Assembly: GCA_973895155.1 (NCBI GenBank)
Contig: OZ316892.1
Span: 20,957,619 to 21,021,618, forward strand
DNA: 64,000 nt
Origin: Marsupella aquatica
Lineage: Eukaryota > Plantae > Marchantiophyta
Direction: 5' to 3'
The notes beneath the pieces were generated by a model. That model was given only the letters and a program-made list of their open reading frames with translations. It made no database searches and was not told the DNA's origin. Made by a program: the position numbers and the translations under genes. The number at the start of each line of letters is the position of its first letter. Position 1 is the first letter of the stretch. Positions 12,588 through 36,754 of the stretch are shown here, in pieces.

Positions 12588-15500
12588 TCTGATTCACTTG
12601 ACTCGGACCTGTCGGTGGATTCTGCCTCCATGTCTAAAAATTTGTTCTCGGCCATATCATCAACATATCGACTACGAATAAATTTTCTATCAGACCCTCT
12701 CCTTAATCTCAAACCTTTATGCTCCCAATGGAGGGTCCGCACACTATCAGTTCGTCTAGCAATATTCTCAGCATAGGAAGGTAGTACAAATGGTTTCTCG
12801 GGAGTTTTAATATATCGCCTAGCTACTTTCCTTCTGAGTTGGAAACGCCGGCAAAGATTCCAGTCTGACCTGAGGACGAGAAGTTTAGGGTTTTATGTCA
12901 ACGCCAAGAATATTTTAAAAAATGAAAAGAAAAATGATAAATCGAAGAGAGAATAAGGTAATCTACTAAAAAACCGGGTTTACTTAAGAGCTTACTCTGA
13001 AGCTTCTTACTCAAAAGAGTCTCCGCTGTCACTCCCTCCATGAGATCCTGGATCTTCTTCGGTAAGAGACACTTTGGGAATGTTAGGATCCTCCTCTTCT
13101 TCCCCCTCTTCTGTCTCATCCTCATCTTCAGAATCAAAATTTAAGACAGACTTCAGTTTGTCTATCTTTCGTTTTGAAATTGAAGACTTTGGAGGGGCTT
13201 TGGGCTCAGACTCTTTTGGAGTAAGAAGATCCAGAAATACCTTAGAAGCAGTTTCAACAAACTCCTTCCTATTCTCGAGTCCAATTACAAATCGACCACA
13301 ATTATCACCTGCAACAAATGTACTCCCCGAACCTACAGTCCAATCCAGAACAATATCTTCTGGACACGTAATTAGTTCCAACACAGACTGCATGAATCCT
13401 GGATGTAGTCTAGCATTCCCGGCAAATTTAAGCTCTGGAGTTGTATCAACCTTCGCGAAGGGAAGTCCAATCAGATTTGTAATGGAAGGATCCTCTGTTT
13501 TTGAAAGGGGTTTGAACTTAGGATCTTTTGGGACTTTCACCTTGGATGATATCCACGAAAATACATCCAAACGTAAAGTGAATACCTGAAAAGGGAACAA
13601 AATAGAGGAAGGACCCTCAGATTACAATAGCGTCGGGCGCTAGCAAATAATCCAAAAAATCACGTTGAATAGTTTACCTGAAATAAGGTCAAATAAAAAA
13701 AGAAAGTAATACATAATATGAATAGCGCTAGAAAAAGGATCAACAAAATTACCTGTAAATCAGACTTCGCTTTGTACATTGGGAACCCCATGACGACATT
13801 ATGTGTACATAGACACTGAAATTTCTTGGACTCTTGACAAGCGGAGATGACCTGCAAAATTTGATCATACTCCCCCGTATGGAGTATCGCAATAATTCCG
13901 TCATCCAACAAAAAAGGATCCATTGCCCGGAAAAAGGATCGGGGTAGGGTACAGTCGGGGATGTTCCATTTAGGGACCTTTCTGTCAAACAAAGTCGGTT
14001 TTAGCCCAGTTGGCAAGTAAATAAAACCAGCGTCAACACCAAAAGGTCTTTGCTTCCCACCCCTCACCACTCCTTTCAGCCGGCATCCAGATTTGATCAG
14101 GTCTTTCCCCCACTTTTCGGCATCATTTACCCATTCCGGCTTGTCCTCCTTATTAAACACACTATCCACAAGTTCACTGACACTTGTCTCAACGAAACAA
14201 TGACGAGACGACTTGGCTTTAAAATCCCCAACATCACGTTGGAGCCCAGTGACAGCCTGAGAATCCCGTTCTGATTGTCCAGCATCTCGAGTCCTTCTGC
14301 TTTTCTTTTTTGTACTGGTCGCATCGACTGGGACAATCGATTTCCCAGAATTAATAGGTGTAAGTGGATCTGGCAAAGCGCCAGTATTTGCTTCTAACGC
14401 TTTTGGGGTAACCTTCGTATCATCTGTGCCATCTGCATCTGACTTCTTTTGACCTATGAACATATTGCAAAGAATGTGGGATTAGGGCCTTCAAGCAAAC
14501 ACTGATGAAGATTGAAACACAAGAATGGCAGCGCCGGGCGCTAGCAAACATTTGAAAAAAAGATTGAAAACTTACGTTTCTTTCCGGATCGCGTGGAGGC
14601 ACTTGGCACTGCAGTGTCTATTTTAACTTTCCCTCGTGGCTTGCGGCTCCTATCTACATGGACAACTACTGTCTCACAGATTGTCTGTAACTCCGTAGAA
14701 GATTTATCAACGTCGCTAAGGAGACCTTGCTTCATCTCAAAAACAATGTTGGGAAGGATCTGCGACTTTGCAAGTTTCAGAAACCAATCCTTCTCCACTT
14801 CATCAAAGGGTGAATCCTATTTGTCTGTGTCAAGGTACCATGGGCAGTGAATTCTTTCCCACTCGGACATTTCCCTTGGGGGTAGTTTACCCTTGGCAGG
14901 ATACATCGAGTATAAGTCACAAACAAGATCTCCCTCCTTTACAGTAATCCACTTGTGAAATGCGGCTGGATACGCCCAAAGAGCATCCGGGGAATGAATT
15001 TCCATCCAAATGTAGAAACGATACAAATACCTCTTGGCCCTCTTCTGATTTTTCTCGGTATATACCTCTTTATCAAGGTATCTTGATGGCCACATGGTGT
15101 TGAAGAACTTTGCCTTCACAAGATCTCCATACCTTCGGAATTCACTTGAAATTACTTCAATCAGATTTTCTACCGAGTCACACCCTGACTAATCAACCGG
15201 TAGCGTTTCAATCGCTGCAAAAATTGCCGAGTGTAGCATCCCAATTGCAATTCCCTCGACGGTATTCCATGTTTGCCATGTGTGGCACCACTGCTTCACT
15301 GGATCATCGTTCACACTTGAAGGGTGGAAGAATTGTTTTCTCAACTCTGGAGTACAGCGAGCAACGAGCAATGTACACCTCAATTTTTGATCAAGCGCCA
15401 AAACTGCAGTAAAGAGTCTGGCACCGTCCATAACTGTGCAAACAACCAAATCTGGTTTTTCTCTCGCTTGTTTTTCTCTGTCAAAACATACATCTCTGCA

Positions 15501-16345
15501 CAGGTACCTAGAAAATCTTCAAACTCAGGACTAAGAAGAGGAGTGATTTTGGACGTTTTCGTGGACCAATCTTTAGTAGACTCTTTCAACATGAGCGATT
15601 GCCACTTTGTGATGTCATCAGCCGACCAAGGATTGCCTTGACTTGCTGCCAGTGCCATGTCCATCTTGAACTGGTTAGTGTAAGCTTTAATTTTGTTTTC
15701 GCATAAAATATAGACTAGAGCTTCTAGAGGCATTTTTCTTGTGTACCAAGAATGTTTTCGAGTCTTCTGTTTGATATACTCAAACTTTGCATAATTGGCG
15801 CTGTCAATGATAGACTTGTAGTGCTCTAGATCGTGAGAAAGAATCCTCCGGATTCTGTCTGCGTCAAGGATCCACGACGGTTCAACAACGGCCTGCCCTA
15901 ACCTGCAATAGGCCAAGTTTTCAATTATTAGCGTCGGGCGCTAGCTTAACTTAAACACTCAATTAGCCTATAAACATTGTATTATTCTATAAACACTCCA
16001 TAAACACTGTATTTATGTAATAACCAAGTATTGCGGAAATTGTTAATTACAAGCTAGGGCAAAAAACGTACTGGTTCACAGTGTGCATAGCCGCCTCAAT
16101 CTGAATTTGCGAAGCTTTGTCACCCTTGAAAATTGTGCAGAGAACTCTGGGATGATACTTGACGTTGTCAGGATTTTCCTTTGTGACCATCGTCCACGAG
16201 TAAAGTCGATGATTCCCGTCGAACACTGAGAACATTTTGTCTTTCAAGATCATAAAGGCAGGATCTGCCTCGCACTCCAGCTCAAACTTCTCGTTCTCAG
16301 CAACCCAAATTGCATCCCAACTCTCCCTGATCTCTTCAGTGCAGA
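12588..16345 (-). pseudogene. ParB/Srx-like + N4/N6 DNA-methyltransferase-like fusion gene, 3' part (exons ~16345-16072, 15902-14576, 14453-13753, 13585-~13010, ~12870-12588)
   Basis: MFSVFDGNHRLYSW (ParB DGxHR box). C-terminal VDAGFIYLPTG...FFRAMDPFLLDDGIIAILH...LELITCPEDIVLDWTVGSGSTFVAGDNCGRFVIGLE follows beta-class amino-MTase motif order (IV...X-I-II). One frameshift (~15440) and in-frame TAG stops at ~15189 and ~14817. Confidence 0.75.
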
Positions 16346-16369
16346 CACTAGTAGAAAACAATGTATTTT

Positions 16370-17075
16370 ATGACCAAAACAATGACTATTAATCAGGTCT
16401 TTTTAACAAAACAATGACGCAATTGTTCTCGTCTTTCCAGACACGTCACAACGGACATTTTGGTCACGGTCCTTTTGGACAAATGACGCTAAAAACATGT
16501 GGTCATTTCATACTATCCTAAATGACCGTTTTTATGATATGGTCATAAATGTTGAACGGTCCAAAATGACGACACAAATCACCATCGACGGTCAATTGCC
16601 GTTGACCGTCGATGGTCTCCGTACCCAATCACACAACGACACGTGGCAATAAAAAAACTAATAACATTGGTCATTTTGGACAGTCCAAAATGACGTACAT
16701 TATATAACAAATCAAATAGTGACACGTGGTTCAAAGAGGATTCACCATTTGGCAATATATTTGGGTCATTCTGGACGTGTCCAAAATGACTACAGTATAA
16801 ACAAGTCATATTGAGACACGTGGTTCAATTGGGAGAAGACACGTAAAGATACACATTAGTCATTAATGACATGTCTTGAATGACATAAAGTGAGTCATAG
16901 TGGACTTGTTTATAATGACCATGAGAAAGGTCATTGTATATGTCATTCTTTGAATCATTTAGTCTATGTCTTTAATGACCAGAGTTGAGTCATATTGGTC
17001 ACAAAGATAGTTGTGAATAATGACCATTACATCAGTCATTCTAGCTAGTCATTTAGTCATTCAAGCCAATCATTC
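16370..17075. repeat. CACTA left subterminal repeat region (dense AATGAC/GTCATT motifs)
   Basis: Dozens of atgac/gtcat motifs in both orientations next to the TIR, as is typical of TnpA-binding subterminal regions. Confidence 0.8.
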
Positions 17076-17428
17076 AGACGAAGTATTCAATGATTTGGAG
17101 AAATTCAAATTTAAGTGATCATGATAGATAAAACTTGATGTCAATCAAAAATCATATATTACAAAGCCATTCAATAGAGTTGCTAAATGAAAACTTAAAG
17201 AAACATTCGATATATATCACAAATCCAATTGATATTCATACAAGATACCTTCATAAGTCTCACGGTAAATATTGAACTCAATGCAAATTTATGAAACAAA
17301 ATTACATTGACATCAATAATATTAGATTGTCAATTGTTACAACCTGACATACCAATCACTCTGCATGTTTATAGAAAAACAGAGTTGTCATTCTATCATG
17401 TCTATTGTTTCTTGATAGAGTGCTATTT

Positions 17429-20400
17429 CTATTGCTTCTTAAGCAATCTAGAGTTCCATAGGGCATTCATCCCTTTCACATCAGATAATTTAGACTGGTT
17501 CTCCCCTGAATTGGCAAATGGCAATGCCACATCTACAAACACTTCAATCACACGCACTCGCAAGAAAGGGCTTTCAAAATCTGCACAATGAAACTTATCT
17601 TCTCCTGGCAGCCCTGTCACCTCACCTTCTGCCACTATCATGGAATTGTCCACAACGCTCTTCATCTTCACCAAATCTCCTCTTGCAAACTGTGAACAAC
17701 ACATTTTGTTAAAAATGCAATAAACAGAAATTGAAAGATAGAAGAACACTCAAATCAAACACACATTTACCTTTGCAACGGGGTTAGGAGACTGCATTGG
17801 TTTCTTCTGTGCAGGTGATGCATTTGCTGAGGATCCTTTCTTCCTTTTCTTCTTTCCCTTTCTAGTTGATGGAGTGTCATCCTGTTCACTTGGAATGGGA
17901 GTTTCTTTTGGCAACTCAGATGATTCTGGGGTTACATCTGGTGTCAACTGAGTCGACTTATCCTCTGGCAACTGAAAGACATCTGAAATGGCTTCTTTGG
18001 GCAACTTAGATGGCAAAAGGTTCACTTCCAATTCAGTTTGCTTTAGAGTACTGTTAGCTGTGTCAGTTGGTCTTCCCTGCGACACAGGAGGCTCCCCTAA
18101 AGATGCTGTCATAAAACACACACAAAAGAAATGCATAAACAAACATGTATACACCAGCAACATATAATCACACTAAAAACATGCAAGAACATTATAAACA
18201 TGCAATGACATATACACATCACAATAATTACATTGAATGGACAGTGTATACATGATAGAGAATTTTACCTTCATTATCGCCTGAAAAAGTAAGAGATCGC
18301 TTTCTACTACCTTGTTTGGTAGTTGTAGTCAACTTACTGTGACTAGGCACAACTGTTGGAACTTGTGCATTACTGGGGTGATGTGCCATCCACGTAGTCA
18401 TCATGTTTGTCAACTCCCTCACAGTGCCTTTCAACTCAGCGACATCCAATTTCACAGCCCCAATGGCAGTGATCTCTTCTTTTGAATGTGGGGTCTGTAA
18501 ATGAACCACAAACCAACACAACAGTCTCACTGTCAAACTTACAAACGACACAACACTGGCTCTGTCAAATGGAGAATGATGTACAAATCAAATTGGTATG
18601 ACAATACTCACAGCTGATCCATGTCTGTTTCCTTGCCCCAGTAAGCTAGCACTTTTACCCTCCCCACTTGCCAATGATGGGCTCACCTTTGCTCCCACAA
18701 AACTACCAGTCTGACCTTCTGCACTTGCCAATGATGGGCTCATTGTCACCTTTGGCAATGAACCCTGACTACCATGGTTTTCTTTCAGGTCAGATATACC
18801 TGGGCTTGATCCTCTCTTCTGCTTCTGTTCAAACACACAATGAATGAGAAATCACAGAGTTTGTTTTCATCAAGATTCACAAACAAGACAGAATTGATAG
18901 TGAAAATGATAGACAATTTACCATTCTCTTTGCTGCTGCAGCATGCCCTCCCCTTCCAAAGTGAGAGGTATCTTGCACTCGTGCTCTTTTATCAGTCATC
19001 TGTTTACTCAAAGATATCAATGCTGGACTGGTAAAATGAGATACCAAAGCTGCCCATTTCTTTGGATCAACACCAGATGGCCCAAGTTTGGTTGGATCCT
19101 CATTGCAAACTTTCTTCCAATAAACATGCATTTTATGGCGCTCTCTCTTCAATATGCCACGACAATGACTCTGGAATTTGGTGTTAATAAATTCCCCACC
19201 CACATACTCCCACTCAGCTGCCATGTTATTCCACACTGTGGTTGTATGAACTTGTGGATGATCAGTCCATTTTGGCTTTGATACATCAAAGACTCTGAGT
19301 ACGTTGCCACGAAGTTCCTCCAGCCAGTATTGTTTGTTGCCATCAGAATCATCAATATCATTGTCATAAATCTGCATTTCATAGACAATGTCAGATCATA
19401 ACTCTGGAATTTATGCAGAGTCCAGGTTTTATACACACAACAACAGAGAGGATCAGATTTGTCTAAATCTACAAACAAGTACAATACTCACTTTAATGTG
19501 TTTGGGCACCTCTCCGCAATCCCTTCGTTGTTTGGCAGTATTATCAAACTGCTTCTTAGCATGCCTTCGTTCCCTGCGCATCTCAGAGGCCCCTCCTGCA
19601 ATGCACACACATGCATTCAATCAAAAAATATGTACATGATTGAAAAGTTGAGCAAATGTACTTGCATATGCAACACGAGCAGATTGTGTATTACCTGAAG
19701 ATCCTCTGGAATGTAGTACATCAGATTGACCTGATCTGCCTTCAGATGCTGATGGAACCACTAAACAAACACACAACACCAAAGCACTTCAATTAATTTC
19801 ATTTCCAAGTAGAATATCAACTTCCAAACACACCTGAAAAGTAGAACAGTACAATCCACTCACTTTCATATAAGAGTCCAGTGTCTGGGTCTTTCCAACA
19901 TCTCACTAGCCCACCTCCACCAGGCCCAGTCTTCTTAGGACCACGATTTTGTTTCTGTACCTACATCATGGACAACGTAAGCATATCAACATATAATTTG
20001 AAAAAGGGACAAGGATCCCTTCCTATTAGGATGATGAAGTTCAAGCATTACCTGTTGTGCACTCTCTGGTTCTGACCCTCCAATGTCAGAATCCTCAGTG
20101 TCATACTCAGAAGGAGAACCATAGCCATCATCACCAAACTCTGCCATGTTCACCTTGGTAACTTCTGATAGTCTAGAGCTCCTCCTCTTTGGCAATGTTT
20201 CAGTTGAAGTACCTTTCACCAAAGCAGGCTTTCCTCTCTCTCGTTGTACATGTGTGGTTGGGCCTCTAAGGAACAAAGCAATCATCAACATACACCAATG
20301 CAGATCAAACATACATGCAAAATGAATCTACAACACCATAACACTAGTACTTATGTACAGGATCCATACTAGTATGAGACCAATCTGGAATATGAAAACA

Positions 20401-20604
20401 GAACATGAACCTGACAACTCCATCTACTGAATCAAATTTGCAATAGACATATCAACACACACATCAGCTTGCAGTCTGGCCCCAGTCCTAGATCACGCAT
20501 AATTCTGACATTATGCTCTATGTTCCGATTTCGGGCCTCCTCATAAGGATTCACAGAATGTGACAACCCTTGCAATCTTCCTTTCACAGGCTGCATTCAC
20601 CAAC
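17429..20604 (-). CDS. CACTA TnpA/Ptta-like accessory protein, many exons (boundaries approximate)
   Basis: N-terminal YEEARNRNIEHNVRIMRDLGL motif (~20550). Central KKWAALVSHFTS...SKQMTDKRARVQDTSHFGRGG resembles the Ptta/En/Spm domain. C-terminal VAEGEV...LRVRVIEV..DVALPF..ALW resembles the Tnp1/En/Spm-like domain. Numerous GT-AG junctions. Confidence 0.75.
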
Positions 20605-20694
20605 TGCACAAATGGATAAACCATTAGTCTGATTTCATAAATAGTCCATACATGTAGTCCATCTATGGACTTCACACACCTAGCTAAAACCTAT

Positions 20695-23600
20695 TCACTG
20701 CTTAGGCCTGCCCTTTCTTGCAGATCCCTCTGCATCTCTGCCTCGTTTGGGACCAGTACTTGGTCCTGGATTTTCTCTGGACCTACAGGCCTTAGCCAAT
20801 TCGATGTGTAATTTGACATTGTTTTCCATTGTAGCATGGAAATCAACGTCTGTGTAATCACCTAACACCCTTGTGGACCTGGATTCTTTGTGGAGGATTG
20901 TTCTCCATGCTATCCCCTTCTCATTGGGGTGGAAGAAAACCTGCTCCACTTGCTTTGGGAAAACGTAATCCATTTTCTTGGACACACCCAGTTCTCTATG
21001 GAAATTCACCTGCCAAAGACCAGACTTGGTATACCTCATACTGGCAGAGGATTTAGGAGTCCATGATGGATCTGCCCATTTCCCTTTGAAAAGAATCACC
21101 TCTTTCCTCAAGCTGCCATAATTCAGTACCAAGATATCTGTCAAGGCCCCTACATACTGTACAGATTCTTCTATGGTTGCACCAGACCTGTCCACTCGCT
21201 TCTCAGTGAATGTAGAAGCCATCCCAGAATCAAAAGTGCTGAAAGCACCAGAATCACAATCACTCAAACACCCCAAGGATGGAATAGTCCTCCAATGGTG
21301 CCCATAGGCTCTACATGCCCTATACAGTCGTGCCTTCAAACTAGGTGGTGTGGAGTATGCAGATAGTAATGACCGCTCAGACTCTTTCTCAAAATTATGG
21401 GTATTGACTAATGTTTGAAACCATTCCCTGAAAGGTGGCAATTCTTGGCAGTCTACGGGAAATTCCACTGGTTTTCTTCGATTGGCAGGCTTCCTCATCC
21501 ACTCCTTCCGGAAATCCACTCTTCGTTTGGTAACAGTCTCATTGGTAGCATCATATATCCTGCATGGCAACAACAACACTGAAGACATTAGTGCACGATC
21601 CACCATGAATATACAAACACAATGGGGAAACATAATTATGATCCATATGCCTAAGGATAGGAGAGTTTCTAGGGTTTATGTACCTATACCATGGAGCCAC
21701 TGTCTCTTCATTCTCTAATATATAATGATGCATGGCCATCATTTCAGACCAATCCAAAGTTATCGCCTTTGCAGCCCCTTCCAAAACAATGCCTGCAACG
21801 CCAGCATCCTCCTCCAACTCCCAGGTTCGTTTTCCCTCTCCCTTTGCATCAATCATGTATTCAGAAAGAAATCCCAAAGACTCATCTAATACATAGCCTT
21901 CAGCCATAGAAGCCTCTGGACGTGCCTTGTTTCGTACATAACCCTTCAATACCTTCAGGTTCCTCTCTATTGGGTACATCCATCTGCCTGTAACTGGGCC
22001 ACACAAGTCTAATTCCTCCACTAGGTGAATCATTAAATGGGTCATGACATCAAAGAAGCTTGGTGGAAAATGGATTTCCAAAATGCAGAGAGTGAATGCA
22101 ACATCCATCATCAAATTCTCATACATTGAAGGGTCCCACACCTTCGTACAGATCTGGCGATAGATATTGCTCACCCCAGCTATGGCCAAGCGAACCCCTT
22201 CATCAAGTAATCCCATTGTTGCCAGAGGGAGAATCTGTTGCATGAGTTGGTGGAAATCATGTGATTTCAACCCAGAGAGTTTCTTGGATTTTGTAACACA
22301 CTTTGCCAAAGAACTTGAAAAACCAGTGGGCCCTTTCAAGGTCAATAAAACCTCCAAGAACCTTGTTCTTTCCTTCTTGCTCAGGCAATATGGGGCTGGG
22401 GGCATCAACAATTTGTCATCCTTACGCTTGGGAGCTGGATTGGGTACAAGCCATAGGTGTTGGCGCACCTGTAAGAGCTTCATGTCTTCTCTCACAGAAG
22501 GAGTGTCCTTGGTCCCAATGATAGTGTGCACAATGTTGTGTGCAAGATTCTTCTCACAGTGCATGGGATCTAGACAATGGTTAATGAGTAGTTTCTGCAG
22601 TGGACACACAATTCAGAAATTAGGGCATTGAATACAACTTTTGGCATCACTGGGCAGTAGTTTGTGCAGTGGACACAATTCAGAAATTAGTGCATTGAAT
22701 ACAACAATTACAAAATCTGGGCTACAGGAAGTATATGAAGAGAATATATTTCAAAGTCATATGAAGAGATTGCAGAAATTCATTGTAGTAGTATGGAGTC
22801 TTACATTCCAATAGGGCAACTTGTACAGACCAGTAGCCCTCTTCACTCCATGCACCTTTATGGGGCATTTCTCATCCTCAACCTTGGTTCCTCCCTTCTT
22901 CAAATATTCTGTTGTCTCGTCTCCCCACTTCTTTCTATCAGAGCTTGTCATTCTACACGGTGCAGGTCGACTCTCAATTGCACCATCAAAGTATTGTGCA
23001 CTATCTGGTCTACGAAAAAGATGCCTTGTTGCTAACCATCGACGGTGGCCACTGTACTCTAATTTCTGCAAGTGCTTAGAACCACGTGCCACACATTCTG
23101 GCCCACAGATGACACATCCTTTGTATCCAGAGTGTTGTTGTCCAGATATTAAACCATATGCAGGGTAATCATTGATTGTCCACAATAGCACAGCCCTAAG
23201 GTTGAAGTGTTGAGACAATCCTGGGCGTGGCAATTTGTCAAAGCAGGGCACTCCTTTCTTCCACAACAGCTCCAACTCCTCATAGAATGGGCCCAATATT
23301 ATGTCTAGCTGTTCCTCTGTTACTGAATCAGGTCCTGGAATCAGCATAGCTAGCATGACAAAGAACTTCTTGGTGGTAAGCCAAGGAGGTAAATTGTAAT
23401 TCAACAACAGTATTGGCCAGGTAGACCAAGCTGTGGAATTATTCCCAAAGGGATTCACCCCATCAAGTGCCAACCCAAATCGCACATTCCTTGGTTCAGC
23501 TGCAAATTCCCGATCAATATTTGTATCCACATGCTTCCAAGCCTTTGAATCTGCTGCGTGCCGAACCATGTTGTCTGTGCTTCTATTCTCATGATGCCAA

Positions 23601-24688
23601 GTCATGAGTTTAGATGTACCAGCAGTGGCATACAATCTCTTCAACCTGGGAATTATAGGGAAATACCGCACTACCTTCCTTGCCTGTAATGAATTCCCCA
23701 CTCTCTTCATCTTGGGCTGCTGACACACTGAACAGTTTTCTAACTTGGCATTCTCACCCCTAAAGAGCATACAACCTTTCTCACAGACAGGGATTCTCTC
23801 ATAATCCAAGCCAAGCTTTCTCAATAGCTGCTTTGCAGCATATAAGTTCTTGGGCAGATTATGCTCTGTAGGCATACCATGCTCCCCCATCAAAGACAAC
23901 AATGCATTCACTCCTTTGTTTGAGAATCCATGGCCATGACAGATGTTCAGCAGAAGCAACATGAATGACACAACATCTATTTTGCTGCCTGGGAACAAAG
24001 GTTGCATTGCTGCATCTAAAGATAACTGTGCAGGATCAGTCTCCACAGGAGTTTTGGAGGTTTCAAGGGGGTTTACAGGATGGGCACCTCCTTCACTCTC
24101 ATCATCCCCAAGTACAAAATCCAAGTCAAAACGGTCCTGATCATCTAGCTCATGCTCAGGGGATTCTTCACTGGTTCTCAGCAACGTTTCTTCCAGTAGA
24201 GCCCTGATATGTTCTTCGACATCTATAGTTGGATGTTCTTGAACATCCACAGTTGGATACTCTGGAACATCCACAGTTGGATACTCTGGAACATCTACAA
24301 ATAAATGTTCTTCAACATCTACAGTTGGCTGTTGTGCACAGGTTGCCTGCTGAAGGTTTGCTACCCTCAATGCCTCAGGGCCATGTTGTGACATGTAGTC
24401 AGCACCCCACTCTTCATCAGAAGAGTCCTGTCCCTCTCCCACCCACACTCGACATGCAGGGTACCGACCATGTTTAATAAGGTGCAGTCTAGCAGTATTC
24501 CGATTAGTCCTATAATTCCCTTTGCAGTTCACACAAGGGCAGTACATCTTATGGTCCCCACTCTTGTGGCAGGCCTTCTGTTCTCGAACCCACAAAGCAT
24601 CATCACGATGTTGTACTCTAGCTGGATGGAAGAGCGGCAACTTTGGAGTTCTACCCACACCTAACGTATTCTGTGGCAATTGTGCCAT
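20695..24688 (-). CDS. CACTA TnpD/Tnp2 transposase (exons 24688-22805, 22594-21684, 21559-20695)
   Basis: CPCVNC N-terminal associated domain, NVRFGLALDGVNPF..STWPILLLNYNLPP, LLWTINDYPAYG, LDPMHCEKN, GLKSHDFH, WMYPIERNLKVLKGYVRN and a DUF4216-like C-terminus. Exons are open and splice in frame. Confidence 0.95.
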
Positions 24689-25285
24689 GCTAGCTTGATT
24701 GAAATTGTATTCAAACTATGATTTTCAAACTGAATCAGAGTGACATGCATACAAAATTGGGCCTACCGTCACAGTTGTACAACCGATGCCAACCACAGTC
24801 CAATTGCTCAAACCCACAGAGCCCAGTTTCTCAAATCCACTGTAGTAGGGCACCTTCTCCTTGCATACAAATAGAGCATCACATACAGTGTCATCAGAAT
24901 GATACTATGAACGTAAATCTCTGTGCCTTCATCATTTCCAGTATTTGTTTGCCTATTAGGAATGTGAGCAGACAGGTCTGGAATAAGTAACGTTTGTGAC
25001 ACCAGTGACAAATTTACAAGTGAAGTTTAGACATCAATATGGAGGAAAGTCACACTCAAAGTACATGCTTGAAAATCAGAATCCTACCCTGGAAAAGATA
25101 ATAAAGTTGATTTCTCAAAATTAATTGCCTCAATCCGCAATGCACTGTCGTAGAGTGTGTATACATGAGGAGTTCATCAAACTGCATATAAATAGTCCAC
25201 ATGTTTTAGCACTCTGAAAATTGTTTAAGTCCACGTGAAACCATCAAAAAGCTCTATCTCAAGTTTGTGTTCGATCCAGCCTCAA

Positions 25286-25945
25286 TCAAATCCAAGATAT
25301 GTGGCTCCTAGCAGGAGTGCCTAGTGTAGGGTCAATGTCATGGTCAGGACAGTAAAACATCCCCTTCTTGGGCTGCCCATGCGCTGAGTGATCCCAAATT
25401 GTTCGATCATGGGCAAATCCCCTCTGCTGGATAAACAGCAGGCAGTCTTTGTGCCATGCCTTAGGACACCTCATGCACTGAACCAAAAAGCCATTAGCCC
25501 CATCATTGGGCCCCTGTCCACAAGTAAGACAAATATGGAGTCCACATGATGCTGTGCCAGGAACCAAACACTGCCGACAGTAAAACCGGGCACAGAGAGA
25601 GTCTGGACATTTTCTTACCTCTTCACCAATTTTTCCAGACACATGGCACTTAAAGCAAGAATGTTCCTCATTCTTGCAATCAACACAAAGCCATTCTCCA
25701 ACATGGCCATCAGCGAGGGATATAGTTGGGCATAGCCATTGCTGACCCAAAGGACAGGAAACATTCTTATGGAAATGTCGGTGGCAAGGCCCATCACAAA
25801 CAATGAGATCCCCTCCCTCATCACAAATCGCACATACATGTGGACTATTCTGGTTAATCTCAATGTCTGAATATAAGGACAATTGAGGTGCTTGAGAGGA
25901 TTCACCTCTGCAACGATTCATGGCCTTCTGCTTATTGCGAGCCAT
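25286..25945 (-). CDS. Stand-alone EDM2/NSD-type PHD-finger (Cys/His-rich) protein carried inside the CACTA element
   Basis: CAICDEGGDLIVCDGPCHRHFH...CVDCKNEEHSCFKC...CARFYC...CGLHICLTC...CMRCPKAWHKDCL...RTIW...FYCPDHDIDPTLGTPARSHISW; single open exon. Confidence 0.85.
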   Translation of the reverse strand: MARNKQKAMNRCRGESSQAPQLSLYSDIEINQNSPHVCAICDEGGDLIVCDGPCHRHFHKNVSCPLGQQWLCPTISLADGHVGEWLCVDCKNEEHSCFKCHVSGKIGEEVRKCPDSLCARFYCRQCLVPGTASCGLHICLTCGQGPNDGANGFLVQCMRCPKAWHKDCLLFIQQRGFAHDRTIWDHSAHGQPKKGMFYCPDHDIDPTLGTPARSHISWI

Positions 25946-28283
25946 GGTCCTGCACACTCAGACCCTACATCAGATTGTGAAACAAGAAGGAATAACAGGG
26001 TGCAGTATGACACAAAAGAATGAGGGTGCAGCATAAAATATGACATGTAACCACAAGGGTGCAACATAAACCAATGCTTTATAGATGGCAAAGCATTTAG
26101 GACTGAGCAGCGCAAATAACCTTGGCCTAGATGATTGGAAGCAATCACAAATATTGCAACCTGTATGCCTTTGCTTGCTGTACAGCAGTGCTCACTCACC
26201 CTGCCTTTTTAAAATCTGTAAGGGCAACACAGAAAAAATAGCAATTGAGTTTCAGCAAAGCATTCATTTGGCTCTCAAGTTTTAAAATGGACAGAGCAAA
26301 CACAACAATGTGCACAACAAAGCACAGAGAGCAACAAAACTCCAGCAAACTGGGACTCAGGCAAGAGATACGAATTTTAGCAGCGAAATCAAATCAAGAT
26401 TCGGACCTGTGAGTTCAACATGCAGTGCTCACTCACGCTGCCCTTTTTTAAATCTGTAAAAATCAAGTTTTATTGTGTGCCTTCTACATCTTAAGCTGCT
26501 GCACACATCTGTTACAGAACCATAAGTTGCTTTACTCTCAACAAGCTGCTGGTCCACCCACTTTTTCAAAAGCTGCACCGTACTCTATCTTCGTGCACAA
26601 ATGACTATACCGGGCTGCTGTCAGAGACCCTTACGAAGGATTTAAAATTGACCAAGCTGATTTTAGTTTAGTTTTGTCCAGTTTGCAGACCAAAGGAAAT
26701 CATGTGGCTGTATTCATGGAGTTGTATTCATTGCTGTGTATGGATGTTGTGTGAACATCAGACAGTTAGCTGTAAATTACCATAGTTGAAGAGCAAGGCT
26801 TGTACAAAAGCCACTAAGGAATTCTCTGAGGTGGCACAGCAGTTGGCAAACCACACACGAAACTCTGAAACTTTTTGGCGACAAAATTCTACAGAGTCGC
26901 TGCTGGAATCAAGTGAGGATTCACCATACATGCTTGCACTTCTCTTCAGTAAAAAAAAGAGAAAAGAAAAGGGCTATGATACAGAGGGATGTCAAAAGAA
27001 GAGTAAGGAAACCAATTCATTGAGGAACATAGACAGACTAAGGAAAACATCATACAATGGAAAACTAAGGACTACATTGTAATAATAAGAGATCAAGCTC
27101 ACCTTGCACCACAAACATTGTCAGACGACAACAAGACAACAAACTGAATTGAACATAGCAGACAAATCCAACAAGTAGCAATCAGAAATCAACAGCAGAC
27201 AGACAAAGGACAACTTGGTCAGAACTCGGGCACTTGATTCAGTTGTGGTAAATAGCTGTTCAGGTTCTGGACAAGCAAGAGCAATACGTGAGCAGACTCC
27301 AGAAAAATCATCTCTTGAGATTGAGGAGAAAGGCATTTCCCAGCCAGCTTACTTATGTCTTGAAAAATGTATCGGACATCGTGGACGCTGGGCCTCAGCT
27401 GCTGGCCGCAAGGGAAGATTTTGCCAAAACAAACAATAAAGCTCGAAGATAGTTAAATTTCTTAGGTCTTTCTAAATGGGGACTGAATTAGCAATTAGAA
27501 CCAGTAAACCCTGATCTTGGGCAGGCAGAGAGAGAAGAGTCCGCGCCTAATACTTATGTCTACCCGAATTTTACTGGGACATATGAGCATTGGGATGCCA
27601 TTGCAAAGCAGAATTTTGTAGCAGTGGAAGGAATCAACATAGATAGCAGTGGAAGGTCGCAGTGGAGCTAGCATGGTACAGGGAAGGAAATGCAGGCATT
27701 GTGCGAGAAAGTGCAATGGCTAGTTCTATGGGATTTCCTTCTCCAATCCATGACAGTGCCGACGACACGCACAACTGCTACAATCAGTGCGCGTCCAGGA
27801 TGCTCCATCGCATCACGTCAGGGAACTCAACATTCTAGACATTCGAAAACTGCATTCACATTTCTCTGCAAAGGGAACTCAACATTGTAGACATTCAAAA
27901 ACTGGTGCAAAACTCAGGCACTTAGAGAGAGAGGGACAGAGAGAGAGCGAGAAAGAGAGAGCAAATAGTCTCTTAGCAATCGGAGCTTCTCTGTCATTGC
28001 CATAAGCATACTAGCAGACACTAAGCAACAGAACAAGAAGGCAACATTGGATTCATGGACTGACAGCACATTGGTAGCACATTGGCAAAAGCAAAGCAAA
28101 AATGCAGAATGAACAAATGGCCAGAAGGGGAAGAAGCGCAAAATTGCACAACTGACCTTCTCGCACCTCAGCCCAAACTCGCTCCCACAGATATAAGTTC
28201 TCGCAGCTCCTTGATGGAACCTCCTGTAGGTTCTCGCCGATTGCAACTCCTCACCCACAGCTTCTTGCCGATTGTAGCTTGCT

Positions 28284-28462
28284 GCTGATTGCAACTCGTC
28301 GCTGATTTGCAGCTCGTCCTCCGCTCCTCACCCGCAGCTTATCGCCGATTGTAGGTCGTCCTCCGCTCCTCGCCCGCAGCTTATCGCCGATTGCAGCTCA
28401 TCCTCCGCTCCTCACCCGCAGCTTATCGCCGATTGCAGCTCATCCTCCGCTCCTCACCCGCA
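28284..28462. repeat. 42-bp tandem repeat (~4 copies)
   Basis: gattgcagctc(g/a)tcctccgctcctcacccgcagcttatcgcc repeated head to tail. Confidence 0.85.
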
Positions 28463-29029
28463 ACAATGACAAATGTAAAGAAGCTATTGCCTTGACCCTA
28501 CAATCAGGCACTCCAAAGCCCGAATGTCCTCCAAAGCGCAGGGTCCTCCAAAGAAGCTCCCAAGTCCTACCGAGGTGCTCCGCCGACCGCGCGCAACAAG
28601 CTCAAAAACAATTGTAGCCTGAATGGCTTCGGGTCGGAGCTCCTCCTCTAAACCTTGCAAATGGTCACTAAAACAATGCCACGTCCAACGCTTCACTCAA
28701 ACAATGCCTCACCCAATGCTTGCCCGAACAATGCCTCGCCCAACGCTTCGAAGGGTGTCGAAGCTTGGTGGAATGGAGCACAACGCTGCGCAACCCTAAG
28801 CCCTTGCAATGTGCACACAAAGGCATGCCAAGAAATGAGCACATCGAGCGTTGCCCTCTCGATGTTTTTTCAGGAAAAAGGGCTCCTGTTGGTACGCAAG
28901 AACACTTAGCGGGAAAAACCTAATGCTAGACCCCTAAAGCCCGTAAAGGTAAGGTATTCTGTTGGATGGGGATGGTGGATATTGTGGGTCATTAATTAGG
29001 GTTATATTCTGACAATATCTCTCACATGT

Positions 29030-29220
29030 CTGGACCCCCCATAAGGCCCTAGGGAAGTTGAGACTAGGTTAATAACAATGTAAACCCCCCCCCCCATAAG
29101 GCCCTAGGGAAATACCAACTATAGAGGTTAATAACAAGGTCCGGACGCCCCCATAAGGCCCTAAGTAGGGAAGGCAAGGTTAATAACTCATAATGTCACG
29201 ACCCCCCCCATAAGGTCATG
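29030..29220. repeat. ~57-bp degenerate tandem repeat (4 copies) near the presumed CACTA promoter
   Basis: cccccataaggccctagg...ggttaataac repeated. Confidence 0.7.
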
Positions 29221-29779
29221 GCTGTTTGTGTAGGTGCCAACAAGAATGTTAAGGACCAATGTTATATATAAAAAATGATGCTAGCGATATAAAAGGTCCG
29301 ATATATGCCCGCGATATAAACCCATAACCCGCATGCATGAACACCATTTTGGACTACCTTATTGTCTCACCATATGATAGTGATACTCATCCAAATATTA
29401 GCATTTAATAGCTCTCCACTCCTGACTCAATTGAGAGAAACCCTCATTCATGACTCAAGCACAATTATAGGGTCCCTTACATGCTACATGACCACTACAT
29501 ATGAGGCTATGTTGTGTAAGAGTTTTTGAGAGCATTACACCAAAGCATTAATAAGTGAGCCTTCCCATGACTATATGACCTCCAATATGCCAACATTAAT
29601 GGCTTCCAATATGACAGCGTGAGTGACCCCACGTTTAGTCCTCAGATTGAAGCACCATTTAATTCACAAATGACCCAATGAACTCCCTTGTACCTCCAAA
29701 GAGAACCCCCCAATAGCCTTTGTAAAGACCACATTTCCAGTCATTTGGTACTTCTGACCTCTAGTATGACAACCAAGAT

Positions 29780-32700
29780 TACCCTAATTTGAGGTGTTTC
29801 CATTAATGACACACCATGAGGGACCTCTCTAATGACCACATATGCAGTCAATTGCTCCAAATGACCTCTAACTGACTACCAAAATGACCCTTATTGTAGT
29901 CATTGACATTAATGACACACATTATGTGAAAATGACCCAATGAAGAGTATACTACCTCTCGGAGTGCCCCTTTACAATTCCTTTGGAATTTAATAGAATA
30001 TATCCAAAATCCAAATATTGGCACAAACATGACATAGTTATATAGAAGGACATAGTCTTCCACTAGTATTGCACTATATACCTCTTGGAGAGACAAAAAC
30101 AATTTTTGTATGCATGCCTTAGGATGGTATGCATGCATGGTGACACTTTTGGCAAATCACTCCAAAGTTGTATGACTTGGGAGTGATTTCCCCAAGGTTG
30201 CATCATCCCTTAAGTAATTGCAAAAACATGGCTCCAAAGTGCTCATGGTGCAACTAGTGGTTGGAGAATAGTACGGTGGGTATAGTACCCCGCACCTTGT
30301 GGAGAGGTTGCCACCTTCATGTAGAGCCCCATGGCACACTAGGGCCACCTTAAGCTCCTAGACCCAAAAGGGTCATTTCTGATGGTACGTAATGACACCA
30401 TGAGGGACCTCTATAATGACCCCATATGGAGTCATTTGGCACAAATGACTTCCAAAAGGACTGCCAAAATGACCCTCACTGCAGTCTTTGGCATTAATGA
30501 CACACTATTCCTCCAAAATGACCCAATGAAGATTACAACACCTACTCACAATGCCTTAAGTCTATTCATATGCAAAATGGAGTATTCCCCATCCAAACAC
30601 CGGCACAAACATGACACAATTACATCACAAGATGACAACCTTCCATTGGTGTTGCGCTACTTCTTGGAGAGACAAAAAATGGCTCCATTTGCGCTTGGAT
30701 ACGGTGGTATGCATCCATGGTGACACTTTTGGCAAATCACTCCAAAGTTGTATGACTTGGGAGTGATTTCCCCAAGGTGCATCATGCCTTAAGTAAATGC
30801 AAAAACATGTGTCCAAAGTGTTCATGGCACAACTAGTGGTTGGACGATGATGAGTATAGTGTCCCGCACCTAGTGGAGGGGGTTCTCACCTCTATGTGGG
30901 GCCCCATGGCACTCTAGGGCCCACCTCCAGCCCCTAGCCCCAAACTGGTCATTTGTGCTTCTGCTTAATGATTGCACAAGGGACCCCTCAAATGACCACA
31001 AATCCAGTCATTTGACTTATGTGACAGCCCATATGACAGATTTAATGACCCTACTTGTAGTCATTGGTATTTATGACACCAATTTTTTCAGAAATGACTC
31101 AATGAAGATTACACTACCTTCTTGAGTGCCCCATCACTATTCATTTGCAAAATAGAATATTCCCCATCCAAACACCGGCACAAACATGACACAATTACAT
31201 GGAACGACAACAGCCTTGCACTACTTCTTGCAGAGACCAAAAAAATGGCTTCATTTCCTTTAGATAGGATGGTATGCATCAATGGTGACACTTTTGGCAA
31301 ATCACTCCAAAGTCGTACGACTTGGGAGTGATTTCCCCAAGATTATATCATCCCTTAAGTAAACACAAAAACATGGCTCCAAACTGCTAATGGTGCAACT
31401 AGTGGTTGGAGAATAGTAATTATAGTATTTGACACCTAGTGGAGGGGTTGCGAGCTCTATGTGGTGCCACATGGCACTCTAGGGCCCACCTCCAGCCCTT
31501 AGCTCCAAATTGGTCATTCATGCTTGTCTTCAATGACTGCACTAGAGACCCCTCAAATGACAACAAGTCCAGTCATTTGAATTATATGACATCCCATATG
31601 ACCAATTCAATGACCCTACTTGTGGTCATTGACACTTATGACATGACTCTGTTAAAAAATGACCCAAAGAAGGTCCTAGCACCGCCAGAGAGAGCCCGCT
31701 CTACATTCCTTGCAAAAATGGAATAATCGTATACCTTTAAACATCAGACACATCATAGAGGGAAGCACCACTACCACACCCATTCCATTGGTGTTGCGCT
31801 ACCTCTTGGAGAGACAAAAAAGGGCTTCATTTGCGTTTGGAATAGTGGTATGCATCCATGGTGACACTTTTGGCAAATCACTCCAAAGTCATACGACTTG
31901 GGAGTGATTTCCCCAAAGGTGCATCATGCCTTAAGTAAACGCAAAAACATGTGTCCAAGGTGTTTATGTCGCAACTAGTGGTTGGACAATGATGAGTATA
32001 GTGTCCCGCACGCAATGGAGGGGTTATCACCTCTATGTGGGGTCACATGGCACTCTAGGGCCCACCTCCAGCCCCTAGCCCCAAACTGGTCATTTGTGCT
32101 TTTCCTTAATGACTGCATAAGGGACCCCTCAAATGACCACAAATCCAGTCATTAGACTGATATGACTTTCCATATGACAGTTTTAATGACCCTGCTTTTA
32201 GTCATTGATATTTATGACGGTCCATTGCTCACATATGACCCAATAAAGGCCCTGGTACCTCCAAAGAGAGCCCGCTTTAGATTCCTTGCAAGGTTGGAAT
32301 ATTCCTCTTCCCTAAACCCGCACCCACACCATACAGGGAAGCACGACTCCCCTGCCCATTCCATTGGTGCAGCACCACCTCTTGGAGAACCCAAAAACAA
32401 CTTTTATTTGCCTTTGTATGTGATGGTGTGCATGCATGGCAACACTTTTGGCAAATCACTCCAAAGTCGTACGACTTGGGAGTGATTTCCCCAAAGGTGC
32501 ATCATGCCTTAAGGAAACACAAAAACTTGTGTCCAAGGTGTTTATGTCGCAACTAGTGGTTGGACAATGATGAGTATAGTGTCCCGCACGCAATGGAGGG
32601 GTTCTCACCTCTATGTGGGGCCCATGGCACTCTAGGGCCCACCTCAAGCCCCTAGCCCCAAAATGGTCATTTGTGCTTTTCCTTAATGACTACATAAGGG

Positions 32701-34390
32701 ACCCCTCAAATGACCACAAATCCAGTCATTAGACTGATATGACTCTCCATATGACAATTTTAATGACCCTACTTTTAGTCATTGGCATTTATGACGGGCC
32801 ATTGCTCACATATGACCCAATAAAGGCCCTAGTACCTCCAAAGAGAGCCAGCTTTAGATTCCTTGCAAGGTTGGAATATTCCTCTTCCCTAAATCTGCAC
32901 CCACACCATACCCTAAAAGCATGACTCCCCTGCCCATTCCATTTGGGCAGCACTACCTCTTGGAGAACCCAAAAACAACTTTTATTTGCCTTTGTATGTG
33001 ATGGTGTGCATGCATGGCAACACTTTTGGAAAATCACTCCAAAGTCGTACGACTTGGGAGTGATTTCCCCAAAGGTGCATCATGCCTTAAGGAAACACAA
33101 AAACATGTGTCCAAAGTGTTTATGTCGCAACTAGTGGTTGGACAATGATGAGTATAGTGTCCCGCACCTCGTGGAGGGGTTCTCACCTCTATGTGGGGCC
33201 CCATGGCACTCTAGGGCGCACCTCCAGCCCCTAGCCCCAAACTGGTCATTTGTGCTTTTCCTTAATGACTGCATGAGGGACCCCTCAAATGACAATAATT
33301 CAGGTCATTCCACTTATATGACATCCAATGTGACCATTTTAATGACCTTTCTTGTAGTAATTGGCATTTATGACGGGCCATTGCTCACATATGACCCAAT
33401 AAAGGCCCTAGTACCTCCAAAGAGAGCCAGCTTTAGATTCCTTGCAAGGTTGGAATATTCCCAAACCCTAATCCCACAGCCACACCATGCTAAGAAGCAC
33501 GACTCCCCTGCCCATTCCATTCGTGCAGCACTACCTCTTGGAGAACCAAAAAACAGGTTTTATTTGCCTTTGGATGTGATGGTATACATCCATGGTTGCA
33601 CTTTTGGCAAATCACTCCAAAGTCGTACGACTTGGGAGTGATTTCCCCAAAGGTGCATCATGCCTTAAGGAAACACAAAAACATGTGCCCAAAGTGTTTA
33701 TGTCGCAACTAGTGGTTGGACAATGATGAGTATAGTGTCCCGCACCTAGTGGAGGGGTTCTCACCTCTATGTGGGGCCCATGGCACTCTAGGGCCCACCT
33801 CAAGCCCCTAGCCCCAAAATGGTCATTTGTGCTTTTCCTTAATGACTACATAAGGGACCCCTCAAATGACCACAAATCCAGTCATTAGACTGATATGACT
33901 CTCCATATGACAATTTTAATGACCCTACTTTTAGTCATTGGCATTTATGACGGGCCATTGCTCACATATGACCCAATAAAGGCCCTAGTACCTCCAAAGA
34001 GAGCTAGCTTTAGATTCCTTGCAAGGTTGGAATATTCCTCTTCCCTAAACCTGCACCCACACCATACTGAGAATGCACCCACACCATACTGAGAAGCATT
34101 ACTCCCCTGCCCATTCCATTGGGGCAGCACTACCTCTTGGAGAACCAAAAAACAACTTTTATTTGCCTTTGGATGTGATGGTATGCATGCATTTATTTGC
34201 AAATTAAAATATTCCCCGTCCAAACACCGGCACAAACATGACACAATTACAACAAAGCATGACAACCTTCCATTGGTATTGCCCTACTTCTTGGAGAGAC
34301 AAAAAGGTTTCATTTGCCCCATGGATACGATAGTATGCGCGCATCCATATATGATGACACTTCTGGAAAATCACTCCAAAGGTGTATGAC
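29780..34390. repeat. ~578-bp tandem array (~8 units) inside the CACTA element
   Basis: Anchor cacttttggcaaatcactccaaagt recurs near 30144, 30724, 31289, 31865, 32443, 33021, 33599 and, degenerate, 34358. Confidence 0.92.
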
Positions 34391-34469
34391 TCTACAATTA
34401 TGATAGGTGTCTGGAATGACTATTGAGTATTTTAATCTTCATATCTCTTGGGTTCTTTAATGACTCTAT

Positions 34470-35345
34470 AAGTAGTCATTTATGTAATAAGTCCATAATG
34501 ACTGTATGTTATTGTAAACATTGATATATCCTGATTTTTAGATTGCCCTATATTTAGTCATTTATGCGACAAGTCCATAATGACAGTATGTTGTTGAAAA
34601 CACCGATATATCCTAATTTCAAGATTGACTGTGGAGTTAGTCATTTATGAGAAAAGTCCATAATGACGGTATGTTCTTGTAAACACTGATATGTCCTAAT
34701 TTCAAGATTGACCCTAGAGTTAGTCATTTATGGCAGAAGTCCATAATGACAATATGTTGTGTAAACACTGATATATTCTCATTTTCAGATTGACCCTAAA
34801 TTTTGTCATTTATGAGAGAAGTCCATAATGACGGTATGTTCTTGTAAACACTAATATGTCCTAATTTCAAGATTGACCCTAGAGTTAGTCATTTATGGCA
34901 GAAGTCCATAATGACAATATGTTGTTGTAAACACTGATATATTCTCATTTTCAGATTGACCCTAAATTTTGTCATTTAACACCGTTGGTTAAAATGACGA
35001 TAATACATTTTTTGTCATTTATCACCGTTGTCCAAAATGATGCAAATAGATTTTTGGTCATTTCAGTCATTGTCCAGAGTGACTATAATGTTGCTAAACA
35101 CTGATTTATCATTGTTGTTATTAATTGTGTCATTTAAGACATGTGTCTAAATTGACCATTTAGGGAAATTGGGTCATTTTGGTCGCATCAGTCATTATAG
35201 ACATTATACAAAATGACAAAAAAATTAACATTTTGTCATTTCAGTCTATTGGTCATTGTGGACAGTCATTCCCCCGTCATTCTTTTTGTGTCATTAAAAC
35301 TTTTGGTCATTTATTCATCTCTGTCATTGGGTGATTGGTCATAAA
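34470..35345. repeat. CACTA right subterminal region including ~89-bp tandem repeats
   Basis: tagtcatttatg..aagtccataatgac..gtaaacactgatat unit repeated ~6 times, then dense gtcat motifs up to the TIR. Confidence 0.85.
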
Positions 35346-35366
35346 GGGCCCTGTTTTCTTCTAGTG

Positions 35367-35856
35367 AGATTTGCTCCACACCATCCGAATCGGTCGGCTG
35401 TACAAAAAACTGCATTCCTATCCTGGGATTGTATCCACTACTTCGGAATGAGTCTTTCAATTTCTCAATTGACGCACTCTCCTTCTGTAACGTCCAAACA
35501 ACCTCCATGTGGACCAGGCGACAAAGCGGAATCCGTGGAGGTTCCTTCTCATTCCCCCAGAAATCTTTCCCAAACGACATGATGTGTTTGGAGATGACTT
35601 CATCCATTCCAAGTCCTACCTCGTTGCCCTCTCCCAAAGCGTAATCGGTCATGCCATCAATCTCCATTCTGCCCCTTCTTGGCTTTTGGCTCGGGAGTGT
35701 TGTGTTCGACGAAGGAATCGCTCCGCTCGATCTTGTAACATGATGCGAATAGAATGCCCCACAGAATGAAGATTGTGTACTCTCACAATGACCCTGATCT
35801 CCCTCCGGAACCATGGTATACCCTCTTGGAGAGCTTGGAGCGCTTGAAGGTTGCAT
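35367..35856 (-). pseudogene. ParB-MTase-like fusion gene, 5' part (start of ParB/Srx-like domain)
   Basis: RIPLCRLVHMEVVWTLQ..SIEKLKDSFRSSGY..FFVQ. After removing the CACTA and one TSD copy it reads GVEQI-CTEEIRESWD in frame with the 16.3-kb segment. Confidence 0.75.
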
Positions 35857-36754
35857 CGTGGAGCCCCAAAGTTTGCGAAGGTGCTTGTACGACACAGAGC
35901 CAGTGTCTATTCTCACGCTCTGAACAAATTACCGTACAAAAAGAACAAGCAGGAAACCTTTAAAACTTGGGCGGTTGACATCATGGGAGGTAGATCGATG
36001 CAAAAGAAAAGGATCTCACTCACCAATCATGACAAGGACAAGTGGCCGATACTATTTAGAATGAGTATATGTAACGCCTCTTTTAAACTGGGGTAAGGGA
36101 GGAGCGATGATCTGTAGGCTAGTGTTAAATAAGTCAACTGCAAAAAGCGTGAAACAATGAGTACGTTCATGCACTTTACCGTTAGATATAACCGTTGGGA
36201 TAATACAAGTCATTCCTTACGATACTAGCGCCAGGCGCTAGCATTCAAACACCACTAAAATAACATCATTAACATTGATGTCAGCCATGAATTTATGTCA
36301 GCGTCGGGCGCTAACTATATTTGATACGTGTATATTTCCTATAAACAACAATTATATCAAACAAACTCAATGTCTTTTGACATTTTTGTTATTCCAATAA
36401 AATTAATAGAGTTTTTCACCTTTAAATGGAAGTGGATTAATGATAGCGCATGGCGCTAGCATATGAAGTTTGGTTTTTAGGTTTTAATTCCATGACTTAT
36501 TTATGGTAGCGCCGGGCGCTAGTAAATATCTGATCATGTTTCTCAAACTATATTATTGATGTTACCAGTACGTAGTGACGTTGGCAAAACGACAAACAAC
36601 ATTTATGTTTCTACATTTTACGACTAGTACCCGTTTTGTCGTTCACAAACGATAATCTTATGGAGTTTGTTACGAATTCACTTAACTTAAGTCGGGTTAT
36701 GTTCTCCTATTCTCTCATTTTCTCTGTTTGTCAATTCGGGATTATTGTTCCGCA

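Follow-up and report, generated by a model that had tools for sequence, protein, structure and literature searches.

Chromatin-related accessory genes of transposons, PHD fingers in mobile elements and mimics of histone H3 are each already known. PHD fingers are found in RAG2, Rehavkus and CR1 ORF1. The anti-silencing proteins known so far from plant transposons are sequence-specific. In Spm and VANDAL elements, TnpA and VANC are encoded by accessory genes beside the transposase; both are sequence-specific regulators, TnpA being transposase-derived and acting through DNA demethylation, and Spm elements activated by TnpA retain H3K9 methylation (bioRxiv 10.64898/2026.08.24.746577). Fungal DNA transposons, including EnSpm elements, carry TET/JBP genes proposed to counter silencing, which encode an enzyme acting on DNA methylation (PMC12730594). 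On the host side, EDM2 of plants binds H3K9me2 and promotes full-length transcripts (PMC9910501), its complex promoting full-length RNA over such chromatin (PMC9910501, PMC5364540, PMC11265718); the whole protein also contains acidic regions, PGR and a methyltransferase-like ELP domain (PMC7529245). The known H3 N-terminal mimics (H3TMs; VRK1, HIVEP1, BCL11B and others) begin with the motif iM-Z-R-x-K, were counted as 48 among 20,996 human proteins and bind PHD readers in vitro (PMC8166343).

The 219-aa protein described here (P0001) compares with each of these systems. It resembles TnpA and VANC as the product of an accessory gene beside a plant transposase, but is of host-type histone reader origin, and its element also has a TnpA-like gene. 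As in the fungal elements the accessory gene is chromatin-related, yet P0001 is a plant histone reader with a putative mimic and not an enzyme acting on DNA methylation. With the H3TMs it shares the iM-Z-R-x-K start; whereas these are human host proteins, the putative mimic of P0001 stands on a transposon protein, in the same chain as a PHD module. Our literature searches, which did not extend to Repbase or to histone mimics in combination with transposons, listed no paper on an EDM2-type gene in a CACTA element. The term PHD occurs zero times in the main text of PMC13317346 and of the Spm preprint (bioRxiv 10.64898/2026.08.24.746577), and the accessible parts of PMC3632883 and PMC10241880 contain nothing on such a gene; a supplement of the Spm preprint, on accessory domains of 962 Spm proteins, may bear on novelty.

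The window, i.e. the whole stretch of 64,000 nucleotides of Marsupella aquatica DNA that was analysed, was screened for all CACT[AG] pairs, and a single pair combined 12/13 terminal matches with a 3-bp duplication (Table 1). The termini of this element follow CACTAG(T/A)AGAAAACA with 14/15 bases matching, the terminal sequences being CACTAGTAGAAAACA and CACTAGAAGAAAACA, and the target site duplication AGA flanks them at 16343-16345 and 35367-35369. With the element and one copy of the duplication left out, the two parts of the interrupted gene join in one reading frame. The matched ends, the AGA duplication and the in-frame interrupted gene thus place the ORF within an apparently complete CACTA element of 19 kb; together with TnpD they bear out the CACTA transposon that the initial annotation had named without giving ends. 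TnpD is recognized by Transposase_21 (PF02992, E 5e-66) and PF13960 (E 9e-36), as well as by DUF4218, DUF4216 and Transpos_assoc. Pfam searches with single exons or pieces of the gene in TnpA position gave no TnpA-type match. The density of ATGAC/GTCAT is 15-22 per kb at both CACTA ends versus 1-6 per kb internally. About 5 kb of subterminal repeats (29700-35000) comprise at least seven ~578-bp units with a 31-bp palindrome and six units of 83 bp, and a 24-bp repeat in the TnpD coding region (24209-24333, 5.2 copies) gives an 8-residue acidic repeat.

Table 1. Features of the CACTA element and of the EDM2-type gene, in window coordinates.
Feature	Position	Strand	Basis
CACTA (En/Spm) element, apparently complete, 19,021 bp	16346..35366	-	matching ends and target duplication
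TnpD transposase, three coding stretches	20695..24688	-	Pfam PF02992, PF13960, PF13952, PF13963
Multi-exon gene in TnpA position	17429..20265	-	splice-site scan; TnpA-like by position and exon pattern only
Subterminal repeats, promoter end, ~578-bp and ~83-bp units, ATGAC/GTCAT-rich	29001..35366	.	
Subterminal ATGAC/GTCAT-rich stretch, opposite end	16346..17000	.	22 motifs in 16001-17000
Larger element hosting the CACTA	9000..39100 (ends approximate)	.	TAGCGCCnGGCGCTA motifs and interrupted gene
Stand-alone EDM2-type triple-PHD gene, P0001, 219 aa	25286..25945	-	translation, Pfam, EDM2 alignment
H3-like N-terminal tip, residues 2-8 (A-R-N-K-Q-K-A)	25922..25942	-	agreement with the iM-Z-R-x-K rule (PMC8166343); family conservation
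PHD1, C38-C90, C4HC3, EDM2-like insertion between H59 and C72	25676..25834	-	ligand register versus EDM2
PHD2, C97-H137, fifth ligand Cys (EDM2: His), 7-aa linker	25535..25657	-	
PHD3, C139-H202, C4HC2H pattern	25340..25531	-	ligand register; pattern as given in PMC3776765
EDM2-type tail, residues 198-216	25298..25354	-	11/21 identical to quinoa EDM2
Predicted splice acceptor, exon start 25964; in-frame stop 25960-25958 ahead of ATG	25946..25990	-	crude consensus scan and sequence
Predicted non-coding first exon, donor 28156	28157..28900 (5' edge 28900 a chosen boundary)	-	prediction only

P0001 starts with ATG, has no interruption and ends in FYCPDHDIDPTLGTPARSHISWI followed by the stop codon. 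The initial annotation had described an intact ORF of about 220 aa, and the end it quoted falls short of the final Ile only. As it had also stated, the ORF lies upstream of and co-oriented with TnpD, its stop standing ~600 nt ahead of the first TnpD ATG at 24688, and consists almost solely of the PHD region; the Pfam matches are PHD families alone (PHD_NSD, E 5e-8; PHDvar_NSD, E 2e-7), with neither a SET nor a PWWP domain. The description as intronless holds for the coding region only; an intron is predicted in the 5' UTR. The first exon predicted ahead of it has 55% G+C, undepleted CpG and 42-bp tandem repeats. On the minus strand the predicted first intron contains two similar stretches of 16-17 nt flanked by AG and GTGAGT (26185-26215 and ~26430-26460), possibly duplicated 5' UTR micro-exons.

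The module had been called EDM2-type, and profile comparison agrees, with 77-80 bits on quinoa EDM2 (positions 33-214) versus 47 bits on NSD2 (20-163). A profile of P0001-P0004 recovered the quinoa EDM2-like protein P0006 (E 6e-18) as the one long protein among 1323 candidates. Residues 26-216 of P0001, tail included, align to this protein at 29% identity, and the alignment is confined to EDM2 residues 227-444. All 24 zinc-ligand positions are Cys or His in P0001, 23 of them identical to quinoa EDM2; C139, C142, C157, C160, H165, C168, C199 and H202 are common to EDM2 and all four proteins of alignment A1, the C4HC2H pattern of the last finger being given for both EDM2 and NSD1 (PMC3776765). 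Among solved structures the PHD1-3 cassette of NSD1-3 is the best match (E 2e-10, residues 36-167), but the NSD proteins have neither the PHD1 insertion nor the tail of P0001 and score below EDM2 by profile: the NSD2 and NSD3 alignments end at residue 167, so that the tail after the last finger is not covered. EDM2/ELP proteins (quinoa P0006, Selaginella P0018), on the other hand, share the three fingers in register, C4HC2H, the PHD1 insertion and the tail. P0001 differs from them by the His-to-Cys exchange in PHD2, a linker of 7 instead of ~27 aa, the lost acidic patch, the H3-like tip with K4 and its location in a CACTA. In P0001-P0004, Pfam found PHD families only and none of the RFD, acidic, PGR or methyltransferase-like parts of EDM2; with module and tail kept and the other domains absent, P0001 thus has the module of EDM2 and is not an EDM2 protein. 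The top cluster in the Atlas (score 0.90) is Streptophyta, PHD_NSD, and its unnamed clusters yielded nothing of use. AlphaFold models were of low confidence (mean pLDDT 35 with four sequences, 46 with seven) and no conclusion was drawn from them; a search by fold had no match at E 0.001 or below. We found no solved structure under the name EDM2, which makes P0001 also a natural minimal version of the EDM2 module, and at 219 aa it is small enough for expression, assays and crystallisation.

A search of representatives gave 508 matches at E 0.001 or better, and the top five of the best 150 listed are short, at 166-245 aa; the best long matches include Selaginella EDM2 and a Marchantia protein. 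In a tree of 152 of the 157 sequences (five with segments below 120 aa excluded; quick method, midpoint root, no one-clade test), 15 short proteins, all of at most 245 aa, form one branch (SH-aLRT 100, stem 1.46). Its long stem leaves from a fork that the tree does not resolve, apart from the EDM2 rows of flowering plants, and four further short rows fall among EDM2-like proteins. Eight members of the short clade that were compared are 36-71% identical. Every scorable member (10/10) has Cys as fifth ligand of PHD2 and the 7-aa linker, versus 1/127 and 0/127, respectively, of the other matches listed; the loss of the acidic patch is likewise common to the clade, and relatives of P0001 end at the same stop position. 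The capture from EDM2 proposed in the initial annotation would be an old event, for which no donor was identified. Elsewhere in the tree, P0016, P0017, P0019, P0026 and P0057 form a supported group of 619-768 aa that ends soon after the PHD module, apparently without methyltransferase-like domain. Another match, P0116 (1635 aa), has a PHD region of the EDM2/NSD type in one chain with a protein kinase domain and may be a gene-model fusion. Metagenome contigs scanned for the ORF gave no match and viral contigs one chance match.

Passive capture had been considered in the initial annotation for an ORF present in this copy only or evolving neutrally. The ORF is not unique to this copy, its region being found in five sequencing runs from three organisms and three studies; no RNA run is among those listed, which says nothing about expression. 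Neutral evolution is dismissed by a pN/pS of 0.17-0.25 (two of the five runs, X1 and X4; contigs at least 80% alike; each change scored singly). All 39 differences listed for X1 and X4 comprise 24 synonymous and 15 non-synonymous changes and no stops, against an expected synonymous share of 21-29% (p < 2e-5 for kappa 1-6). Among 12 listed (of 13) indels in a wider set of contigs none lies within the ORF (p ~0.012 for ~9 events). Neutral simulation to 53% identity left the frame stop-free in 6/4000 cases and kept on average 11 of 22 Cys, with a maximum of 19, while P0004 has 20/22. In run X1, which may be the window's own source, a 1204-nt contig spans the ORF and its flanks (24848-26048) with two ORF differences, both synonymous; several diverged versions of the ORF are also present, and, as judged by eye, another contig keeps the frame and the tail motifs into its loose ends. 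A deletion of 1 nt and two replacements of Cys by Tyr in one diverged copy show that decayed copies exist as well, and several clade representatives similarly break off or shift frame midway. CpG is as depleted in the ORF (observed/expected 0.25) as in TnpD (0.24 and 0.22), whereas two neighbouring host-type genes have ratios of 0.54 and 0.75; this points to long residence in the element. The gene, intact and situated within the ends of the element, evolves under purifying selection, and its clade of short proteins is old.

D51 and W85 of P0001, which we take to act at R2 and A1 of histone H3, respectively, are kept in all four proteins of alignment A1. For PHD1 alone, the nearest solved single fingers are AIRE PHD1 and CHD4 PHD (E 0.001-0.03), treated as readers of unmethylated K4 (PMC3471955). 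The 12 residues before PHD1 contain on average 1.7 acidic residues in the short clade (n=9) versus 4.8 in the other matches listed (n=115), and the Asp three residues ahead of the first Cys is replaced in 9/9 short-clade members; in the corresponding region of AIRE, Asp297 matters for binding (PMC3471955). Because this acidic patch is lost, H3K9me2 reading cannot be assumed; EDM2 specificity may not have been kept and the mark read may differ from H3K9me2.

A feature missed by the initial annotation is the very N-terminus. Histone H3 begins with ARTKQTARKS (PMC8166343), P0001 with M-A-R-N-K-Q-K-A and its relative P0002 with M-A-R-T-K-Q-K-A-Y-K. Over the first nine residues P0002 matches H3 at seven positions and P0001 at five, with Asn at the positions of T3 and K9. 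The iM-Z-R-x-K rule applies to P0001 and six more of 15 family N-termini at the annotated start, and to one more at an internal Met, versus 3/138 of the other matches listed. The 15 N-termini exclude P0005 (a near-copy) and P0014, P0060 and P0074 (no scorable N-terminus) and include four fragments added by likeness. The motif [ATS]-R-x-K occurs in 11/15, directly after Met in 8/15; 20,000 shuffles yielded at most six and two such N-termini, respectively. Since the motif was noticed post hoc and the relatives share ancestry, these shuffles demonstrate conservation and not mimicry. It is absent from P0003, P0004, P0011 and P0142 (4/15) and does not follow Met in 3/11 carriers. Among the 11 carriers, Q5 of H3 is present in five and A/S7 in ten, and conservation fades past position 9. 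Ala after Met permits Met removal by the rule given in PMC8166343. When 23 N-terminal residues of P0002 were compared with PDB sequences, no match was obtained at E up to 10, the likeness to H3 being too short for such a search. A start of the M-[ATS]-R type is also seen in 14/138 host-like matches listed, among them Selaginella EDM2 (MARTLG) and the Marchantia protein (MARVHG), and three of the 14 have K4; the P0001-type start may therefore be inherited. P0016-P0020, P0025 and P0034, host-like EDM2 relatives, start with M-A-R-T/V, and an H3-like tip is possible in host EDM2 relatives of non-seed plants.

We tentatively prefer, at a probability somewhat short of even, to regard P0001 as a selected CACTA accessory gene that combines the EDM2 PHD module with an H3-like tip and likely acts as a chromatin-bound histone decoy aiding expression in silenced chromatin. 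In its sequence, P0001 keeps the 24 ligand positions and the EDM2 tail while dispensing with the RFD, acidic and methyltransferase-like parts, and its start is that of a candidate H3 mimic. The protein would be separately terminated and made from the single promoter of the element, with a non-coding first exon spliced to the acceptor at 25964. Removal of Met1 would expose A1-R2-x-K4 as in histone H3, and the PHD module would bind H3 tails as that of EDM2 does. The tip would then either act as a switch by filling the PHD1 pocket of its own chain or engage host readers and writers of the H3 tail; in both modes, the consequence at the element would be displacement or redirection of host factors for silencing or RNA processing. 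P0001 lacks a DNA-binding part by which its action could be limited to the element that encodes it. If true, the combination of an EDM2-type reader with a histone-tail mimic amounts to a countermeasure at the histone level. A further elaboration, which we rate as improbable though conceivable, is a translator of marks kept very long by CACTA elements of a plant lineage: the EDM2-derived fingers would dock on the element's own silenced nucleosomes and the H3-like tip would serve as an extra tail for host H3K4 writers and readers. Silenced chromatin would by this combination display an activating signal, with H3K9 methylation not lost, and the same tip may be a self-ligand in EDM2 of non-seed plants.

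P0001 may instead be a separate targeting subunit that tethers a TnpD/TnpA complex to nucleosomes of a given H3 state and so steers insertion, which we consider unlikely. A PHD subunit guides RAG1-RAG2, and the window copy was inserted into a gene of another transposon, the reading frame of that gene continuing on the far side of the insertion; this is, however, one insertion site only, P0001 has no recognisable transposase-binding surface, and the H3-like tip is left unexplained. Were the protein to steer insertion, a plant cut-and-paste transposon would have a chromatin-targeting subunit that is separable. The basic N-terminus, with 4-7 K+R, may also simply be a nuclear localisation signal, and a plain truncated EDM2 reader competing with the host protein, its first residues being such a signal or the inherited start seen in the Selaginella and Marchantia proteins, has a rather small probability. 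Against it, R2 and K4 hold their place at the extreme N-terminus in clusters of 37-50% identity, Q5 and A/S7 are enriched, the spacing from tip to PHD1 varies (29-48 residues) while the tip stays fixed, and K4 is found in just the three host-like matches mentioned above. Still less probable is a protein that tunes the RNA processing of its element: by assisting or obstructing ASI1-AIPP1-EDM2 it would set the use of a proximal exon against that of the distal TnpD/TnpA exons, possibly in a self-limiting manner. In the predicted layout the ORF is indeed a proximal terminal exon that precedes TnpD and the TnpA-like gene, and over heterochromatin the choice between proximal and distal polyadenylation is controlled by the EDM2 complex (PMC9910501, PMC5364540), but the splice pattern is a crude prediction.

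The initial annotation had suggested that the module is spliced onto Tnp transcripts, and a reader-transposase fusion in which the ORF is an exon of TnpD or TnpA is very improbable. One good donor follows codon 109 (25618, phase 0), and a TAG before the TnpD frame could be an in-frame acceptor, so that a partial fusion is possible, yet splicing at this donor would divide PHD2. Within the final 60 codons there are three GT sites scoring 0-1 of 6, hence no usable donor, and an in-frame junction of the whole module with TnpD cannot be formed. Moreover, conservation extends over the C-terminal half and the position of the stop, a transposase domain is found in none of the 38 top matches scanned (of the best 150 of 508), and the 69 candidates of a P0001 search included no longer form, which counts for little; for the whole module the suggestion is not supported. 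Likewise very improbable is that the short proteins are mostly an ordinary host gene family from which the CACTA picked up the window copy. Linkage to a CACTA is indeed shown for the window copy only, and none of 13 distant TnpD loci (38-47% identity), of which only three exceed 4 kb, has such an ORF. The TnpD-like CpG depletion, the several diverged versions in one run and the representatives that break off or change frame midway like decayed copies speak against it, and annotated NCBI genomes contribute no member to the eight clusters looked up. Neutral capture of part of EDM2 as passive cargo, of the Pack-CACTA type, has a next to negligible probability. CACTA elements do capture host fragments (PMC13317346), but a recent, donor-like and neutral fragment is contradicted by the pN/pS of ~0.2 and the neutral simulation, in addition to the kept zinc ligands, the conserved stop, the ~30% identity to EDM2 and the long separate stem.

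The surroundings of the CACTA hold further mobile and host-type sequences. The larger element (9000-39100) has TAGCGCCnGGCGCTA palindromes at both ends and inside, with motifs at 9027-15929 and 36226-38955, and genes at 35928-13007 (minus, multi-exon) and 36686-38373 (plus). The multi-exon gene contains what is presumably a ParB-like DGNHR motif (16047-16343). A bacterial-type N6/N4 methyltransferase segment lies at 13007-13621 (PF01555, 33.7 bits, above the cut-off; DpnA, E 1.6e-6), and a plant DNA transposon with a PF01555-type domain may merit separate study. A fragmented MULE transposase with a SWIM finger is present at 5036-8267 (plus). Host-type genes at 43237-44295, 46387-48997 and 55955-56368 correspond to a kinase, cupins and an AhpC/TSA exon; the protein kinase is one long ORF and the two cupin genes are 94% alike over 300 nt. 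Finally, 40222-41819 and 51190-52327 belong to an element family with long inverted repeats that is MITE-like.
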